This document shows, in pieces, positions 9,436 through 26,602 of a stretch of DNA of 30,348 nucleotides. Position 1 is the first letter of the stretch, and each line of letters opens with the position of its first letter. The translations under genes and the position numbers were made by a program. The DNA is from a virus (lineage: Duplodnaviria > Heunggongvirae > Uroviricota > Caudoviricetes), in IMG/VR virus record IMGVR_UViG_2568526312_000003, one strand, 5' to 3'. The notes beneath the pieces were generated by a model. That model had not been told where the DNA came from. It saw only the letters and a list, made by a program, of their open reading frames with translations, and did not search any database.

Positions 9436-9762
9436 ATGACTAAAAATACTCGTTTTTCCCCCGAAGTCCGTCAGCGGGCGATTCGTATGGTTCTGGAAAG
9501 TCAGGATGAATATGACTCACAGTGGGCGGCAATTTGTTCCATTGCCCCAAAGATTGGCTGTACGCCGGAGACTCTGCGTGTCTGGGTTCGCCAGCATGAG
9601 CGGGATACCGGGGGCGGTGATGGTGGGCTCACCAGCGCTGAACGTCAGCGTCTGAAAGAGCTGGAACGTGAAAATCGTGAACTGCGCCGCAGTAACGATA
9701 TCCTTCGCCAGGCTTCCGCTTATTTTGCGAAGGCGGAGTTCGACCGCCTCTGGAAAAAATGA
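9436..9762 (+). CDS. IS629 transposase OrfA (HTH)
   Basis: 108 aa [22 protein letters not shown]... matches IS629/IS3-family OrfA as recalled. Confidence 0.9.
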
Positions 9763-10649
9763 TGCCACTGCTGGATAAGCTGCGTGAGCAGTACGGGGTC
9801 GGACCGGTATGCAGCGAACTGCATATTGCCCCGTCAACGTATTACCATTGTCAGCAACAGCGACATCATCCGGATAAACGCAGTGCCCGTGCGCAGCACG
9901 ACGACTGGCTGAAGAGAGAGATACAGCGCGTATACGATGAAAATCATCAGGTGTACGGTGTGCGTAAAGTCTGGCGTCAGTTGTTACGGGAAGGAATCAG
10001 GGTGGCCAGATGTACAGTGGCACGTCTCATGGCGGTTATGGGACTTGCCGGTGTTCTCCGGGGTAAAAAGGTCCGTACGACCATCAGCCGGAAAGCCGTT
10101 GCCGCAGGCGACCGCGTAAACCGTCAGTTCGTGGCAGAACGACCTGACCAGCTGTGGGTGGCTGATTTTACTTACGTCAGCACATGGCAGGGCTTCGTCT
10201 ATGTGGCGTTTATCATTGATGTGTTTGCCGGATACATCGTGGGGTGGCGGGTCTCATCGTCTATGGAAACGACATTCGTGCTGGATGCGCTGGAGCAGGC
10301 GTTGTGGGCCCGTCGTCCGTCTGGCACCATCCATCACAGCGATAAAGGCTCTCAGTATGTGTCACTGGCCTATACGGAGCGACTAAAAGAAGCCGGATTA
10401 CTGGCATCAACAGGGAGTACAGGCGACTCGTATGACAACGCGATGGCTGAGAGCATCAATGGTCTTTACAAAGCGGAGGTAATACACCGTAAGAGCTGGA
10501 AAAACCGTGCAGAAGTGGAACTGGCCACACTAACGTGGGTGGACTGGTATAACAATCGACGATTGCTGGGAAGGCTGGGCCATACTCCTCCGGCAGAAGC
10601 AGAAAAAGCTTATTATGCTTCCATCGGAAACGATGATCTGGCAGCCTGA
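9759..10649 (+). CDS. IS629 transposase OrfB (DDE integrase core)
   Basis: 296 aa with the DDE region (WVADFTYV...HSDKGSQY...[15 protein letters not shown]); frameshift window ggaaaaaatga at 9752-9762. Confidence 0.9.
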
Positions 10650-12695: not shown

Positions 12696-12894
12696 AAATA
12701 AAGGGATAACGATGATAGTTTGAGAAAAACAGAAATAACACTTTTGTGGCAAAGCATGGTGCCGGGTGCCTCCCGGTGAATTCAGTATCAGCACCTGAAT
12801 CCGCGATTACCCCATATTCCTTCTTGCTGATTGCCCCACCGCACAGGGGGATTCACCATGCAGAAGTGTTTTTAATAAACAGCAAACAAAAAAA

Positions 12895-13660: not shown

Positions 13661-13737
13661 TGGTGCGTTGTACTGGGTTCGAACCAGTGACCGATTGCTT
13701 AGAAGGCAATTGCTCTGTCCGGCTGAGCTAAAAACGC
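13661..13737 (-). tRNA. tRNA-Arg (anticodon UCU)
   Basis: Cloverleaf on minus strand, anticodon loop CTTCTAA, T-arm GGTTCGAAC, 3' CCA encoded. Confidence 0.8.
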
Positions 13738-13750
13738 AGAATACCGATAA

Positions 13751-13829
13751 TGGACCGCCATCGGAGACTCGAACCCCGCGAAACCAGCTTCGAAGGCTGG
13801 CGTTCTATCCCGATGAGCTAATGGCGGTA
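13751..13829 (-). tRNA. tRNA-Arg (anticodon UCG)
   Basis: Anticodon stem CCAGC/GCTGG, loop CTTCGAA, T-arm GGTTCGAGT, CCA end; exact 5' end uncertain by 1-2 nt. Confidence 0.7.
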
Positions 13830-13834
13830 TGTGA

Positions 13835-13910
13835 TGGTGGCCCTTGCTGGATTTGAACCAGCGGCCTGGCGATTATGAGTCGCTCGCTCTCACCACTGAG
13901 CTAAAGGGCC
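13835..13910 (-). tRNA. tRNA with CAU anticodon (Ile2/Met, ileZ-like)
   Basis: GGCCCTTTAGCTCAGTGG...CTCATAA...GGTTCAAATCC...AAGGGCCACCA; 7-bp acceptor stem, anticodon CAT. Confidence 0.8.
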
Positions 13911-16578: not shown

Positions 16579-16607
16579 AGAAAAAACAAAACCCGCCGAA
16601 GCGGGTT
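16579..16607 (-). terminator. rho-independent terminator downstream of hok
   Basis: Minus strand aacccgcttcggcgggtt hairpin followed by ttgttttttct. Confidence 0.6.
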
Positions 16608-16675
16608 AAGTGCGGGTGCGTTGAGGATGCCTGACACATCAGCGGTGGCGAGGGATTTCTCCCCCGCCTGGTCTC

Positions 16676-16831
16676 TTACTCCTCAGGTTCGTAAGCTGTG
16701 AAGACAGCGACCTCCGTCTGGCCGGTTCGGATTCGTACCTCGCAGAGGTCTTTCCTCGTTACCAGTGCCGTCACTATGACGGTTAAACAGATGACGATCA
16801 GGGCGATTAACATCGCCTTTTGCTGCTTCAT
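16676..16831 (-). CDS. hok: Hok/Gef family type I toxin (HokD/RelF-like), with in-frame Mok-like upstream extension to 16888
   Basis: MKQQKAMLIALIVICLTVIVTALVTRKDLCEVRIRTGQTEVAVFTAYEPEE; SD aggaga; 70-aa in-frame extension resembles Mok. Confidence 0.85.
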   Translation of the reverse strand: MKQQKAMLIALIVICLTVIVTALVTRKDLCEVRIRTGQTEVAVFTAYEPEE

Positions 16832-17074
16832 AACCTGCTTCTCCTTGCCTTTCGGCGCGTAAGAGGCTAACCTACGTTTGTGAAGCATAGATTGGGCCTC
16901 AGATTAATGTTAAGCGTCTTGCAGGACGCGTAATGTTAACTGGGGCTTTTCTCTGTCTGCCTTACGGTGGCATGCCCGAGGCAGACAGCCTCAAGCACCC
17001 GCAGCAATTCTACTTAACTCTCGCTTTACAGCAAACCGTTTTGCCCGATATGGGAATTCCCATACGGAATGAAT

Positions 17075-17179
17075 TCAGTTCCCCAGGCGCTCCATCAAAA
17101 ACACAACCAGGCAGTAAACACCCACAACAGCAATAACAGCCAGAGCGCCTTCCATTACCAGTGAAATATCATCCGACAT
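17075..17179 (-). CDS. 34-aa hydrophobic peptide (candidate small membrane protein)
   Basis: agggaggg SD 6 nt before ATG; MSDDISLVMEGALAVIAVVGVYCLVVFLMERLGN; not in ORF track (<60 aa). Confidence 0.35.
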   Translation of the reverse strand: MSDDISLVMEGALAVIAVVGVYCLVVFLMERLGN

Positions 17180-17288
17180 ATTCCCTCCCTTGGTGTGAAT
17201 CCCGGCGAACGTTTTTACCCCCACCGACAAATAACATATACTAGAAAAGCAATAGCTATAGCAACGCCTGCAAATGCATCTGGCCGGC

Positions 17289-17852
17289 TCATTGGTTCTC
17301 CCCCTGTGTCGCTTCTACTGCGATCTGACTGGCGTATTCGTTAATGGTAACGATAAGTTCTTGCTCGGCCTCATCCAGACAACTACCGATACCTCGCCTG
17401 TCCACTTCAGAAGCATCGAAATCTGCACGAAGCCTGGCGACCTTCAGGATTGCGGACAACACCTCATCAGGGATTGCCGGAGAGTTGGTTGACGTTTCCG
17501 AGATTATCCGAAAATTATTGGTTGACGAACCCTTATTTTCCCGAAAGTTTCCAGCCTGAAGCATGGCGGCGCGGTGACACCAGATAATCCAGCCAAGCGC
17601 CATATCCCATGCCATGTATTCTCTATCGCCATTTTTTGCTCTGCGGCGATCTACAGATTCCCCGAAACGCTTCTCCATAAATAATTCATAGGCTGCCCGT
17701 TCATCCGATACTGATGCCAGTGATGCCAGTGCAATTTTTAATGCGGTAAGCATGTTGTTTTGATCTTCATCGAGTCCGAACGGTATTTCATCCCGTGATG
17801 ACTCAATTCCGGTAATCGTGTTCTGTAGCCATTCTTTGGTTAATTCAGTCAT
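17289..17852 (-). CDS. hypothetical nin-region protein (187 aa)
   Basis: Long intact ORF in operon orientation; no motif recognised. Confidence 0.5.
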   Translation of the reverse strand: MTELTKEWLQNTITGIESSRDEIPFGLDEDQNNMLTALKIALASLASVSDERAAYELFMEKRFGESVDRRRAKNGDREYMAWDMALGWIIWCHRAAMLQAGNFRENKGSSTNNFRIISETSTNSPAIPDEVLSAILKVARLRADFDASEVDRRGIGSCLDEAEQELIVTINEYASQIAVEATQGENQ

Positions 17853-24130: not shown

Positions 24131-26602
24131 ATGAGTAAAATCTTTATTTGCGCTGCTATTCCTGACGAACAGGCCATAAAAGAAGATAGCGCTGTTGCGG
24201 TGGCCACTGCCATTGAAGCCGGTGATGAGCGTCGCGCACGCGCAAAATTTCACTGGCAATTTCTGGAGCAATTCCCGGCAGCTCAGGACTGCGCTTATAA
24301 ATTTATTGTCTGCGAGGATAAACCCGGCATACCCCGCCCTGCCCTCGATTCCTGGGATACCGAATATATGCAGGAAAACCGCTGGGATGAGGAGTCAGCT
24401 TCCTTTGTACCGGTCGAACCAGAATCCGATCCGATGAACGTCAATTTTGACAAGCTGTCCCCTGAAGTACAGAACGCAGTCCTGGTTAAATTCGACACAT
24501 GCGAAAACATCACCGTTGATATGGTGATTAGCGCACAGGAATTACTACAGGAAGACATGGCAACATTCGGCGGACATATCGTTGAAGCGTTGATGAAAAT
24601 GCCAGAAGTTAACGCCATGTATCCTGAACTTAAACTGCATGCCATCGGGTGGGTTAAGCATAAATGTGAGCCTGGCGCTAAATGGCCTGAAATTCAGGCA
24701 GAGATGCGCATCTGGAAAAAACGTCGCGAAGGTGAACGCAAGGAAACCGGAAAATACACGTCTGTTGTTGATCTCGCCCGCGCCAGAGTCAACCAACAGA
24801 ACCCTGAAAACGCTGCTGAAAAAACCGGGGCTGTCACTGTTGCCATTCGCCGCGAATACAAACAGACATGGAAAACACTCGACAATGAACTGGCCTGCGC
24901 CCTCTGGCCCGGTGATGTGGATGCAGGAAACATTGACGGTACCATCCATCGCTGGGCGACAAATGAGGTTATCGACAAGGATCGCGAAGACTGGAAGCGT
25001 ATCTCAGCATCAATGCGCAAACAGCCCGAAGCACTTGGCTATGACCGTCAGACTATTTTTGGCCTTGTTCGCGAACGTCCGATCGATATTCACAAAGATC
25101 CCGTTGCACTGAACAAATATATCAGTGAATACCTGACGACAAAGGGCGTGTTTGAACATGAAGAAACAGACCAGAGCTCTACTGATGCTCTCCAGCCGTC
25201 AGCAGCACAAACTGCTCCAGTGGAGACGGCAGAATCCGATACTCAAAAAAATGAAATCCTGGTGGAAGCTGAACCATCTGTAGAGCGTGAAGGACCATTT
25301 TATTTCGTCTTTACCGATAAGGGCGGGGAAAAATACGGCAGGGCAAACAAACTTTCTGGTCTGGACAAGGCGCTGGCTGCCGGCGGTACCGAAATCTCAA
25401 AAGAAGAATATTTTGCCCGAAAAAATGGCACATACACGGGCTTACCGCAAAATGTGGATACCGCTGAAGATTCCGAACAATCAGAGCCGGTAAAAGTTAC
25501 CGCTGACGAAGTAAACAAAATTATGCAGGCAGCCAATATCAGCCAGCCTGACGCCGATAAATTGCTTGCTGCATCACGTGGTGAATTTGTTGAAGGGATT
25601 AGCGACCCGAATGATCCGAAATGGGTGAAAGGGATCCAGAGTCGCGACGCTGAGGACCAGAATCAGCCCAACGTGAAACAAAATGAGCCAGAAGCGGAAC
25701 AAAACAGCCCGGATACGCAACAAAACGGGCCAGAAGAACAACAACCAGAACCAGCAGTGCAACAGGAACTGGAAAAAGTTTGCACCGCATGCGGTCAGAC
25801 CGGTGGCGGCAACTGTCCTGACTGTGGTGCGGTGATGGGGAACGCAACCTACCTGGAAACATTCGATGAAGAGAATCAGGCTGAAGCTCAGAAAAATGAT
25901 CCGGAGGAAATGGAAGGCACTGAACATCTGCACAAGGAGAACACTGGCAGCGATCAGTATCACGCCAGCGATAATAAAACTGGCGAAACAGCAAATCCCT
26001 TAATTAAAGTGAACGGTCATCATGAAATCTCATCCACCAGCAGGTTGTGGCACCATCTGATGATTGACCTTGAAACAATGGGAAAAAATCCTGATGCGCC
26101 AATAAACTCTATAGCCGGTAAGTTTTTTGATCCGGCAACCGGAGAGATGGGGCCAGAATTCAGCAAAACTATCGATCTGGAAACCGCAGGTGGGGTCATC
26201 GATCGGGACACCATTAAGTGGTGGCTGAAACAGTCACGCGAAGCACAATCCTCCATTCTGACCGATGAAATCACGTTGGATGATGCACTGCTGCAATTCC
26301 GGGAATTTATCGACGAAAACTCCGGTGAATTTTTTGTTCAGGTCTGGGGTAACGGTGCAACTTTCGACAACGTGATTTTACGCCGTTCATATGAACGGCA
26401 GGGGATCCCCTGCCCGTGGCGTTACACCAATGATCGCGATGTAAGAACGATGGTTGCTCTGGGACTGGTGATGGATTTCGACGCAAGAACGACTATTCCA
26501 TTCGAAGGTGAACGCCATAACGCCCTGCACGATGCGCGTTACCAGGCAAAATACGTTTCAGCCATCTGGCAAAAACTGCTCCCGAGTCAGGCTGATTTTT
26601 AA
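24131..26602 (+). CDS. large RecE-like (exonuclease VIII family) protein with C-terminal DEDDh 3'-5' exonuclease domain
   Basis: Central segment KLLAASRGEFVEGISDPNDPKWVKGIQSRD...CTACGQTGGGNCPDCGAVMG resembles the RecE middle region (memory); C-terminus has DnaQ-like motifs MIDLETMG, VWGNGATFDNV, HNALHDARYQA. Confidence 0.6.
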   Translation: MSKIFICAAIPDEQAIKEDSAVAVATAIEAGDERRARAKFHWQFLEQFPAAQDCAYKFIVCEDKPGIPRPALDSWDTEYMQENRWDEESASFVPVEPESDPMNVNFDKLSPEVQNAVLVKFDTCENITVDMVISAQELLQEDMATFGGHIVEALMKMPEVNAMYPELKLHAIGWVKHKCEPGAKWPEIQAEMRIWKKRREGERKETGKYTSVVDLARARVNQQNPENAAEKTGAVTVAIRREYKQTWKTLDNELACALWPGDVDAGNIDGTIHRWATNEVIDKDREDWKRISASMRKQPEALGYDRQTIFGLVRERPIDIHKDPVALNKYISEYLTTKGVFEHEETDQSSTDALQPSAAQTAPVETAESDTQKNEILVEAEPSVEREGPFYFVFTDKGGEKYGRANKLSGLDKALAAGGTEISKEEYFARKNGTYTGLPQNVDTAEDSEQSEPVKVTADEVNKIMQAANISQPDADKLLAASRGEFVEGISDPNDPKWVKGIQSRDAEDQNQPNVKQNEPEAEQNSPDTQQNGPEEQQPEPAVQQELEKVCTACGQTGGGNCPDCGAVMGNATYLETFDEENQAEAQKNDPEEMEGTEHLHKENTGSDQYHASDNKTGETANPLIKVNGHHEISSTSRLWHHLMIDLETMGKNPDAPINSIAGKFFDPATGEMGPEFSKTIDLETAGGVIDRDTIKWWLKQSREAQSSILTDEITLDDALLQFREFIDENSGEFFVQVWGNGATFDNVILRRSYERQGIPCPWRYTNDRDVRTMVALGLVMDFDARTTIPFEGERHNALHDARYQAKYVSAIWQKLLPSQADF

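Follow-up and report, generated by a model that had tools for sequence, protein, structure and literature searches.

A complete hok/sok cassette in an E. coli O157-type prophage and a conserved gene for a predicted membrane microprotein beside it

The hokW-mokW-sokW locus of the Stx2 phage 933W (Sakai prophage Sp5) has been demonstrated by experiment to be a toxin–antitoxin system of type I, with a toxin that localises to the inner membrane and helps lysis upon induction, and its sokW RNA, a homologue of Sok, has been both detected and functionally tested (PMC8621323). We compared this system, the hok/sok (parB) system of plasmid R1 (through the family model RF01794) and the hokD (relF) gene of the K-12 prophage Qin with a locus in a 30,348-nt stretch of caudovirus DNA (IMG/VR record IMGVR_UViG_2568526312_000003), the whole of which we call the window. 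The locus lies on the minus strand in the early-right (nin) region of a lambdoid prophage, between the replication genes and Q, and its downstream neighbours are a DUF968/YdfU gene and then the Q antiterminator. Between the hok promoter and the fbi element its DNA is ~92% identical to hokW-mokW-sokW, and the two loci are alike in their mok/hok arrangement, in the position of Sok and in an extended Sok hairpin with TAATGTTAA repeats. The 933W locus differs in its 3' terminator region and upstream of hok, where one small gene (ORF1 below) directly abuts the hok promoter and both a 34-aa gene (ORF2) and a palindrome that are present in the window are missing; it also sits near the end of its record (58.4-58.8 kb of 61.7 kb) rather than between the replication genes and Q. 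In K-12 Qin the Hok CDS and the 3' UTR (fbi and terminator) are identical to those of the window and the same two genes follow downstream, but everything upstream of the hok Shine-Dalgarno has been replaced by relBE, so that the promoter of the window cassette, its tac stem, mok start and Sok gene, and also ORF2 and ORF1, are missing from Qin. With the R1 system, as represented by the family model, the window shares the predicted tac/fbi fold-back, a mok start overlapped by a putative Sok and predicted intrinsic terminators, and it departs from the model in an insertion of roughly 16 nt, which makes the Sok/target hairpin longer.

The hok/sok cassette in this interval, a toxin gene with its antisense RNA in a prophage of the E. 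coli O157 type, is complete and well known. An earlier note on this DNA had proposed a hok/mok type I toxin locus here, which the match to Pfam HOK_GEF, the full-length match to Rfam RF01794 and the 92% identity to hokW-sokW all bear out, and every sequence feature that it listed lies where it was placed, on the minus strand (read from the sequence and the ORF list). The features, including those added by our analysis, are as follows.

16581..17000, minus strand: putative full-length hok mRNA, its ends placed from the Rfam model start at 17000, the fold and a terminator scan
16676..16831, minus strand: hok toxin CDS, 51 aa, HokD/HokW type (ORF list, Pfam, PHROG, RefSeq)
16676..16888, minus strand: mok-like ORF of 70 aa that extends the hok frame in the 5' direction (ORF list)
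16845..16873, plus strand: putative Sok promoter, TTGCCT (16845-16850), 17-nt spacer, TAACCT (16868-16873), read from the sequence
16880..16953, plus strand: putative Sok antisense RNA, ~74 nt (mapping of the 933W sokW annotation, fold)
16905..16939, no strand: two direct repeats TAATGTTAA (16905-16913 and 16931-16939) flanking GCGTC/GACGC (repeat search, folds)
16953..16988, minus strand: hairpin with a 9-bp stem, CTGTCTGCC (16988-16980) pairing with GGCAGACAG (16961-16953) (first helix block of the Rfam model, minimum-energy fold)
17007..17035, minus strand: putative hok promoter, TTTGCT (17035-17030), 17-nt spacer, TAGAAT (17012-17007), read by sequence
17049..17064, no strand: palindrome TATGGGAATTCCCATA, 16 bp and perfect, spanning -49 to -64 relative to the putative hok start
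17075..17179, minus strand: ORF2, gene for a 34-aa predicted single-helix membrane microprotein, ATG at 17179-17177 and stop at 17077-17075
17215..17292, minus strand: ORF1, gene for a 25-aa predicted single-TM microprotein (ORF list)

Family membership of the toxin is unambiguous: Hok matches Pfam HOK_GEF (PF01848) at 1.2e-23 over profile positions 1-42 of 42 and PHROG 251 at 2.8e-33, its CDS is identical to K-12 hokD, and RefSeq labels the product hokD (WP_000813254.1). This name denotes protein identity only, because the upstream region has been replaced in K-12, whereas the cassette of the window is complete and presumably regulated. The start of the mok-like ORF is overlapped by the putative Sok, an arrangement in which mokW and hokW of 933W are also annotated, with a shared stop codon. 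The hok leader matches RF01794 across positions 1-157 of 157 (114.9 bits, E 1e-25, against a gathering score of 59). At the 5' end of the putative mRNA the tac element GGGUGCUUGAGG would pair with the fbi element CCUCAACGCACCC (16614-16626); in the predicted minimum-energy fold of the mRNA (-174.9 kcal/mol, z = -6.5) positions 17000-16989 are paired with 16626-16614, and the terminator scan finds a hairpin at 16590-16607 followed by a T-run. The TAGAAT hexamer of the putative hok promoter and its spacing are kept in 933W, in phage Tritos and on the Shigella virulence plasmid pINV; the promoter scan calls the equivalent TTGGCG-17-TAGAAT in Tritos, and the hok promoter of the window falls under the scan threshold.

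Annotated 933W sokW maps onto the Sok region of the window at high identity. The 5' tail of the putative Sok RNA overlaps the mok start and is followed by a long hairpin (16894-16948) and then by UUUUCUCU; the hairpin on the Sok strand has a computed folding energy of -33.2 kcal/mol (z = -5.4), with a hairpin plus U-tract predicted. The putative Sok promoter shows little or no variation among the aligned loci and lies under the threshold of the consensus scan. The plus-strand location that the earlier note gave to Sok is supported; the note had guessed 16850-16940, and we would place the RNA at ~16880-16953, with its putative promoter hexamers at 16845-16873. Two other elements that had been described between ORF2 and hok, the 9-bp-stem hairpin and the TAATGTTAA repeats, are both present, the repeats at 16905-16939, but are not separate elements; both lie inside the Rfam model. 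The hairpin is the standard 5' stem-loop of hok mRNA rather than a palindromic element in its own right, and the repeats form the body of two hairpins, the terminator of Sok and the target in hok mRNA, where they are a lineage-specific extension (an insertion relative to the Rfam consensus that is absent from locus L005).

By analogy with the 92%-identical hokW-sokW, the Hok of the window would be toxic and would be neutralised by Sok. A weak constitutive promoter would produce a hok mRNA of roughly 420 nt, kept inert by pairing of its 5' end with the 3' fbi element, while the short plus-strand Sok would pair across the mok start and block mok translation, and thereby hok translation; on loss of Sok, the 51-aa Hok peptide would be made and would damage the inner membrane. 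This part of the locus adds nothing new, since hundreds of O157 genomes have this very sequence annotated and the 92%-identical copy has been characterised.

The earlier note had also described a 34-aa ORF with a strong Shine-Dalgarno upstream of hok on the same strand. We find this ORF, here ORF2, with the Shine-Dalgarno AGGGAGGG at 17190-17183, 3 nt ahead of the ATG; its product is WP_001278460.1, annotated 'hypothetical protein'. It proved to be conserved in homologous loci and to lie outside the putative hok mRNA, two of the points on which the earlier proposal had been made to depend: 74 nt separate its stop (17075) from the start of the Rfam model (17000), which lies downstream. The single hydrophobic TM core that had been noticed is likewise predicted here, by hydropathy (best 19-residue Kyte-Doolittle window 2.72, net charge -3) and by AlphaFold2 (one helix, residues 2-33, pLDDT 90). 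Like Hok, the peptide has conserved Cys residues.

Patterns of variation indicate that ORF2 is a genuine small protein-coding gene. The frame is intact in 82 of 82 type-1 loci and 83 of 83 type-2 loci (165/165 sampled). Among the 82 type-1 loci, 8 of the 11 variable sites fall at codon position 3, with 7 synonymous to 4 conservative non-synonymous changes; among type-2 loci, which were collected by a DNA pattern and were scored over the first 15 codons because this pattern biases the last 41 nt of type-2 ORF2, 10 of the 14 variable sites fall at position 3 and none at position 2 (12 synonymous to 4 non-synonymous). With both types combined, the third-position bias has p≈9e-5 and the synonymous bias p≈3e-6. 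dN/dS against 29-aa homologues is 0.16-0.43 in all pairs, synonymous sites are saturated between the types, and protein and DNA identity between the types are 54% and 65%, respectively. The position of the start and of a Shine-Dalgarno (AGGAGG or GGAGG, 4-5 nt before the start) is conserved, with the start codon itself varying between ATG and GTG.

Word-index protein and locus searches, which used a 51-codon extended frame as query, and other database searches confine the family to Escherichia/Shigella, and a type-1 profile run against 1.84 billion proteins retrieved the 29/30-aa types (E = 2e-4 and 8e-4) and nothing else. Other prophages and the Shigella virulence plasmid carry 29-aa homologues at the same place. 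Approximately 670 (34-aa type) and 1,700 (29-aa type) of 5,426 complete E. coli genomes carry the gene, the 29-aa type being mostly unannotated and systematically missed. Among 72,556 plasmid records, 144 have ORF2-like matches, 141 of them distant (<60% identity; mostly Shigella/E. coli virulence plasmids, three of which were inspected) and 3 close, of the 34-aa type. On Shigella pINV, ORF2 is intact upstream of the virulence gene icsP, adjoining a decayed hok stub. ORF2 without hok occurs there and in one S. flexneri chromosome; both examples come from Shigella, a group with decaying genomes, and chance can preserve an ORF of 87 nt. Neither ORF2 nor ORF1 gave anything significant in Pfam, PHROGs, NCBIfam or PADLOC, a literature text search with their peptide strings and WP accessions found no paper, and topical literature searches on hokW, hokD, prophage hok and icsP yielded no description of an ORF upstream of hok; the two are families of tiny predicted single-helix membrane proteins, with clear signs of selection at the codon level, for which we found neither family model nor literature. 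Bacterial small inner-membrane proteins are single-pass, shorter than 50 aa and often missed by annotation (PMC12648545). ORF2 and ORF1 resemble them in being recognised by a Shine-Dalgarno and codon-level conservation, and differ in having no sequence relation to any named small-protein family and in being phage-borne and restricted to Escherichia/Shigella.

ORF1, a second conserved microprotein gene inside the examined interval, had been overlooked by the earlier note. Its family follows the pattern M.WPEAF..G......VY.ICRWG, with pN/pS of 0.22-0.66, and its ATG overlaps the stop of an upstream 187-aa gene (ATGA), to which it would be translationally coupled. Homologues of 27 aa lie directly before hokW in 933W and after Ea22/EaA/DUF551 genes in many lambdoid phages. 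Since the family mostly follows these genes far from any hok, we rejected ORF1 as a part of the hok cassette; it belongs to the upstream ea-type gene module.

In the window prophage the promoter scan recognises no promoter for ORF2 itself, and this, together with the gene order, makes translation from the phage early-right transcript during lytic growth most likely. The peptide would then insert in the inner membrane, with its acidic N-terminus out and its C-terminal ERLGN in, if it follows the positive-inside rule. Type-2 loci may own an ORF2 promoter; a candidate, TTGAAT-17-CATATT, was seen by eye (8/12 matches, under the scan threshold). Several other readings of the region were set aside: a plus-strand promoter-like site at 17214-17242 was rejected as an antisense promoter (it is directed away from ORF2, and its occurrence is no more than chance would give), as was a structured RNA or riboregulator in 17001-17300 (fold z = +0.40 against shuffles, no Rfam match), and a duplicate of Hok was rejected when BLASTP of ORF2 against Hok gave no alignment.

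From comparison of loci we read ORF2 as a membrane microprotein of the accessory ('moron') type, independent but inherited along with hok cassettes, and as neither a toxin under antisense control nor an obligatory third part of the toxin–antitoxin system. The interval as a whole would then comprise three independent minus-strand units, the hok/mok/sok cassette, ORF2 as an independent accessory microprotein gene and ORF1, a reading that we consider probable. The main alternative is that ORF2 is a functional third component of a prophage hok/sok subfamily, a membrane partner that modulates Hok or the timing of lysis. Indeed, ORF2 lies directly 5' of the hok promoter in all sampled loci with sequence (80 type-1 and 80 type-2, IMG/VR), as it does in E. 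albertii and E. ruysiae, and this persistent adjacency across two deeply diverged lineages, saturated at synonymous sites, could reflect a functional link rather than hitch-hiking. ORF2 and Hok are, moreover, both predicted to be single-pass inner-membrane peptides; with no predicted terminator between ORF2 and the hok promoter, read-through could give a bicistronic RNA; and on induction, the time at which early-right genes are transcribed, hokW-sokW has an effect on lysis and on the release of phage (PMC8621323). However, that experimentally functional locus has no ORF2, nor do the hok cassettes of K-12 Qin, of L005 (where an ORF2 3' stub alone is left) or of IncF plasmids; ORF2 persists where hok has gone; and divergence is discordant, the hok modules of the window and of Tritos being 94.5% identical and their ORF2 DNA 65%. 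We therefore regard a third component as a minority possibility, and give the same low standing to the modes in which it might act (immunity, or gating or enhancement of Hok pore formation).

A further question is whether the palindrome upstream of the hok promoter, which is present as the earlier note stated, serves as an operator for a dimeric DNA-binding protein controlling that promoter. It is a perfect dyad with one singleton change among 22 haplotypes while the bases directly flanking it vary, it is retained with hok even where ORF2 has been replaced (L005, PPompW phages), and its position, centred at about -56, would suit an upstream activator or repressor. Yet perfect palindromes of at least 16 bp occur in 43% of Markov-simulated windows of the same size (mean 0.55 per window), the window holds no second copy of TATGGGAATTCCCATA even with up to 3 mismatches allowed, no binding protein is known, and the palindrome is missing from the Tritos and pINV loci as well as from the functional hokW promoter. 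An operator role is accordingly doubtful. The palindrome is real but statistically unremarkable, and lineage-specific: it is kept with the hok cassette in type-1 loci and L005, and is absent from 933W, Tritos and pINV. As candidates for other roles, an intrinsic terminator was rejected (there is no U-tract) and so was a repeated operator (the palindrome is unique in the window).

It is very unlikely that ORF2 is itself a small membrane toxin, be it another toxin of type I-like character or a peptide resembling a holin. The earlier note had found the ORF reminiscent of type I toxins, and ORF2 does resemble TisB, IbsC, ShoB, LdrD and ZorO (family properties from PMC12648545) in size (19-35 aa), in its single, very hydrophobic predicted helix and in its mobile-element location; it also lies in a prophage beside a bona fide type I toxin and, judging from gene order, would be silent in a lysogen, with the early operon under the repressor. 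Unlike these toxins, it has no antisense or divergent sRNA that we could find and no structured or processed leader, and it combines an accessible Shine-Dalgarno with an acidic net charge. A consensus promoter scan found no antisense promoter over 17075-17190, Rfam gave no match in the ORF2 region even at E <= 1, and the mRNA shows no unusual structure. The Shine-Dalgarno is strong and partly open (mean unpaired probability about 0.5) rather than sequestered, the net charge of -3 and the acidic N-terminus stand against the basic termini of Hok, to which the peptide has no similarity, and ORF2 is intact on Shigella pINV, outside any phage repressor circuit. What ORF2 has in common with type I toxins is thus that it is a small hydrophobic peptide, and in consensus and family scans and in fold predictions the proposed resemblance did not extend to an antisense sRNA or an inert, structured transcript.

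Finally, the reading of ORF2 as a chance open frame in a spacer, conserved through recent common ancestry alone, is disfavoured to the point of being barely credible: it would fit the missing database matches, the restriction to one genus and the fact that PGAP never calls the 29-aa type, but not the codon-position and synonymous biases, dN/dS below 0.45 in all pairs, protein similarity kept while the DNA diverged, or a start register and frame conserved in every sampled locus.

A large fraction of E. coli genomes have ORF2 beside a hok promoter. As the independent accessory gene that we take it to be, not modulating Hok or lysis, it is a well-supported candidate for the small-protein catalogue and a handy marker of hok cassette mosaicism. 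If it does modulate them, it would represent a protein layer on a classic RNA-controlled toxin. More broadly, and in our judgement improbably, a large subfamily of prophage hok/sok cassettes might be three-part modules in which ORF2 (29-34 aa) assists or opposes Hok in the inner membrane, for instance by determining at what threshold or at what time Hok-assisted lysis sets in when the prophage is induced. Were this true, the textbook picture of hok/sok as an RNA-only system would gain a protein modulator, and the retention of ORF2 upstream of icsP on the Shigella virulence plasmid would be explained.

The window represents a lambdoid prophage type present in hundreds of genomes of E. coli O157:H7 and other STEC; a 761-nt query around the hok locus matched the best-listed genomes at 100% identity, and 342 records reached 99% identity or more. 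RefSeq gene order runs from a LexA-family repressor (opposite strand) through cro, ydaT, replication O/P-like genes and several hypothetical genes to a 187-aa hypothetical protein, a 34-aa hypothetical protein (WP_001278460.1, here ORF2), hokD, a 92-aa hypothetical protein, DUF968, rusA, Q and tRNAs, with the hok-region genes on the minus strand. Because this order leads from replication genes through the hok locus to the Q antiterminator, the locus lies in the early-right (nin) region. Downstream of Q and three tRNA genes is a match to Rfam STnc100, a PasD-related prophage sRNA family (100.8 bits; entry coordinates 12718–12890 (−) and 13664–13910 (−)), and this stretch is a typical late-region sRNA/tRNA island of Stx-like prophages. 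The ALIL pseudoknot is a programmed-frameshift signal of IS3-family transposases, and a match to it at 9717–9833 (+; 121.5 bits) points to a putative IS element inserted in the prophage.

Reading of the minus strand, together with the ORF list, agreed with every coordinate in the earlier note and gave the following features:

17292–17215, minus strand: ORF1, 25 codons, single transmembrane segment (ORF list), overlooked in the earlier note
17179–17075, minus strand: ORF2, 34 codons, preceded by AGGGAGGG at 17190–17183
17049–17064: 16-bp perfect palindrome TATGGGAATTCCCATA, located 49 to 64 nt upstream of the inferred hok start
17035–17030 and 17012–17007, minus strand: putative hok promoter, TTTGCT and TAGAAT 17 nt apart, by eye; under the consensus-scan threshold in the window
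16988–16980 and 16961–16953, minus strand: 9-bp stem (strand reading)
16905–16913 and 16931–16939: direct repeats TAATGTTAA, two copies
from ATG 16888, minus strand: mok, 70 codons, in frame with hok (ORF list)
16845–16850 and 16868–16873, plus strand: putative Sok promoter, TTGCCT and TAACCT 17 nt apart, by eye; under the consensus-scan threshold in the window
16676–16831, minus strand: hok coding sequence (ORF list and strand reading)

The hok/mok type I toxin locus proposed from sequence was confirmed by matches of Hok to Pfam HOK_GEF (1.2e-23) and PHROG 251 and by a match to Rfam RF01794 from 17000 to 16826, across the whole model (114.9 bits), which lies on the hok strand, terminates at the hok AUG and therefore describes the hok mRNA leader. 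Folded as a single RNA (17000→16581), the 5′ GGGUGCUUGAGG pairs with the fold-back element CCUCAACGCACCC at 16626–16614 (z = −6.5), and a predicted intrinsic terminator (16607–16590) followed by a T-run would mark the mRNA 3′ end. The equivalent promoter in phage Tritos (TTGGCG-17-TAGAAT) was picked up by consensus scan. The cassette is thus canonical and complete, and, with its RNA elements, is already known: the Stx2 phage 933W, in which mokW, hokW and sokW are annotated, carries a cassette ~92% identical to that of the window from promoter to fold-back element. [quoted passage not shown] In the K-12 Qin hokD locus, the Hok coding sequence and 3′ untranslated region (UTR) are identical to those of the window, but relBE replaces everything upstream of the hok Shine–Dalgarno sequence; the RefSeq label 'HokD' therefore reflects protein identity, and the window holds the intact, presumably regulated version. 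A sub-threshold match to Rfam isrK on the hok 3′ UTR (16586–16667 (−); 27.2 bits where the gathering score is 50; E = 0.0013) spans the fold-back element and terminator, and may reflect chance or a common prophage 3′ UTR module. Two compared loci, L007 (2391–3487) and L038 (window-equivalent ~16840–16845), carry a ~1.1-kb insertion between the mok and hok starts that encodes a DDE transposase of 362 aa (Pfam rve/rve_3 and HTH); it occupies the inferred Sok −35 region, with flanks overlapping by 6 bp, and these prophages probably have an inactive Sok and/or hok as a result.

Transfer of the sokW annotation from 933W placed Sok on the plus strand from ~16880 to ~16953, with a 9-nt overlap with the mok start, in line with the antisense RNA anticipated at about 16850–16940. 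This stretch folds into a long hairpin (16894–16948) followed by UUUUCUCU (−33.2 kcal/mol, z = −5.4). Two elements previously regarded as separate are present but belong to the cassette: the hok leader model has the 9-bp stem as its first helix, and the TAATGTTAA repeats, with a GCGTC/GACGC mini-stem, make up the body of both the Sok terminator hairpin and its complementary target hairpin in hok mRNA, the repeats pairing mutually through G·U pairs in the Sok-strand fold. The repeat stretch is a ~16-nt insertion relative to the Rfam consensus, common to 933W and absent from locus L005 (NZ_CP148578.1). The 16-bp palindrome, also present as described, is almost unchanged across 22 type-1 haplotypes (loci with the 34-aa ORF2) and retained in L005 and PPompW phages, whose ORF2 is replaced, and is missing from the 933W, Tritos and Shigella virulence plasmid (pINV) loci. 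No second copy was found in the window with up to 3 mismatches allowed, and 43% of simulated windows have a palindrome that is perfect and 16 bp or longer. It was rejected as a terminator because it lacks a U-tract; an operator role is possible but unsupported. The window holds three such palindromes against ~0.55 expected, the others being two overlapping 18-bp perfect palindromes, GCCGTTCATATGAACGGC and GGCAGGGGATCCCCTGCC, at 26382–26414.

The strong Shine–Dalgarno sequence noted for the 34-aa ORF was upheld, and ORF2 is a real coding gene, as indicated by within-type variation, diverged homologues in the same place and between-type selection. Its frame is kept in all 82 type-1 loci sampled (IMG/VR prophage contigs plus three genomes), where 8 of 11 variable sites fall at codon position 3 and the changes are either synonymous (7) or conservative (4: V8A, M9I, I16V, E30D). 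Type-2 loci carry a 29-aa homologue, ~54% identical, in the same position directly upstream of the hok promoter; the 15 codons outside the search-pattern constraint have 14 variable sites, of which 10 fall at position 3 and none at position 2, and 16 changes, of which 12 are synonymous (combined binomial p for both types, 9e-5 for position 3 and 3e-6 for synonymous changes). Between types, dN/dS is 0.16–0.43 with synonymous sites saturated, and L7, L13, V18, Y22-C23-L24, L28 and R31 are unchanged in aligned members of all types. That ORF2 is not a gene is thus scarcely credible. It had no match in Pfam, PHROG, NCBIfam or PADLOC, its public names are only 'hypothetical', 'membrane' or 'uncharacterized' protein, and a profile run against 1.84 billion representative proteins returned 13 matches, from the ORF2 family alone (30-aa type, E = 2e-4; 29-aa type, E = 8e-4). 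The 29-aa form has a GTG start codon, or ATG in the Shigella plasmid copy, 5 nt beyond AGGAGG (for example, L087 1495–1587 and L095/L096 ~4100–4240), and occurs in phages Tritos, Evi and mEp460_ev081, in E. albertii and E. ruysiae and, together with hok, in at least 1,706 of 5,426 complete E. coli genomes; no annotated feature underlies it in the 30 RefSeq records among the matches listed or in two loci examined.

The ORF2 product has a strongly hydrophobic core and is predicted as one continuous helix (residues 2–33, pLDDT 90); in the inner membrane it would most likely form a single inserted helix and serve as an independent accessory protein. The hok leader-model start lies 74 nt beyond the end of ORF2, which is therefore not part of the hok mRNA. 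Judged from their distribution, ORF2 and hok are separable: hok occurs without ORF2 in 933W, K-12, IncF plasmids generally and L005, where the breakpoint lies within the last few ORF2 codons, beside a paa island, leaving palindrome and hok intact (L005 642–1500; in some E. coli genomes the hok cassette directly follows the adhesin gene paa), and ORF2 occurs without hok in one S. flexneri chromosome and without functional hok on the Shigella virulence plasmid. There, pWR100 (locus L089) has an intact 29-aa ORF (1998–2087) followed by a decayed hok promoter and 5′-stem stub (2088–2200), ~300 nt upstream of icsP; similar distant matches occur in ~140 Shigella and E. coli plasmids (three inspected), a S. 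dysenteriae copy has a C-terminal frameshift, and only 144 of 72,556 plasmids carry any ORF2-like sequence. Between the window and Tritos, hok modules are 94.5% identical and ORF2 DNA 65%, so recombination has shuffled these parts. The main observation that independence leaves unexplained is the persistence of ORF2 beside the hok promoter across saturated divergence, with hok following in every locus with downstream sequence (80 type-1 and 80 type-2 IMG/VR loci, two of which have variant −10 boxes); even so, we consider a functional partnership with Hok unlikely. The earlier likening to a type I toxin found no support: scanning and folding of the ORF2 region gave no antisense promoter, RNA family match or type I leader structure (z = +0.40, not unusual), the Shine–Dalgarno sequence is strong and about half-open, the product has a net charge of −3 and comparison with Hok gave no similarity, which makes a toxin in its own right very improbable. 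We therefore favour, with moderate confidence, a textbook hok/sok locus alongside an independent inner-membrane ORF2. No recognisable promoter was found by scanning upstream of ORF2 in the window, and the most economical reading is that ORF2 would be translated from the early-right operon during lytic growth; in type-2 loci, a conserved ~200-nt leader and a TTGAAT-17-CATATT seen by eye, for which the scan makes no promoter call, hint at a promoter of its own.

The ORF1 start codon overlaps the stop codon of the preceding 187-aa gene (ATGA), and ORF1 represents another genuine microprotein family. Its 27-aa relatives (M.WPEAF..G......VY.ICRWG), mostly unannotated, follow Ea22, EaA and DUF551 genes in early-left regions of many lambdoid phages, and in 933W one lies after L0139, directly before the hokW promoter; ORF1 thus moves together with the upstream module rather than with hok. 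Among the other loci examined, 27 codons is the constant length, except for a premature TGA two codons early in L003 and a 1-nt deletion near the start in L057; the window copy is shorter by an in-frame deletion of 6 nt, and pN/pS is 0.22–0.66 with heavy synonymous divergence.

Together, the conserved ORF2–hok adjacency and the two microprotein families are the only new elements here, and we found no description of either family, or of the adjacency, in the literature. They are not highly surprising in themselves and are of modest interest for specialists in small proteins and type I TA systems.
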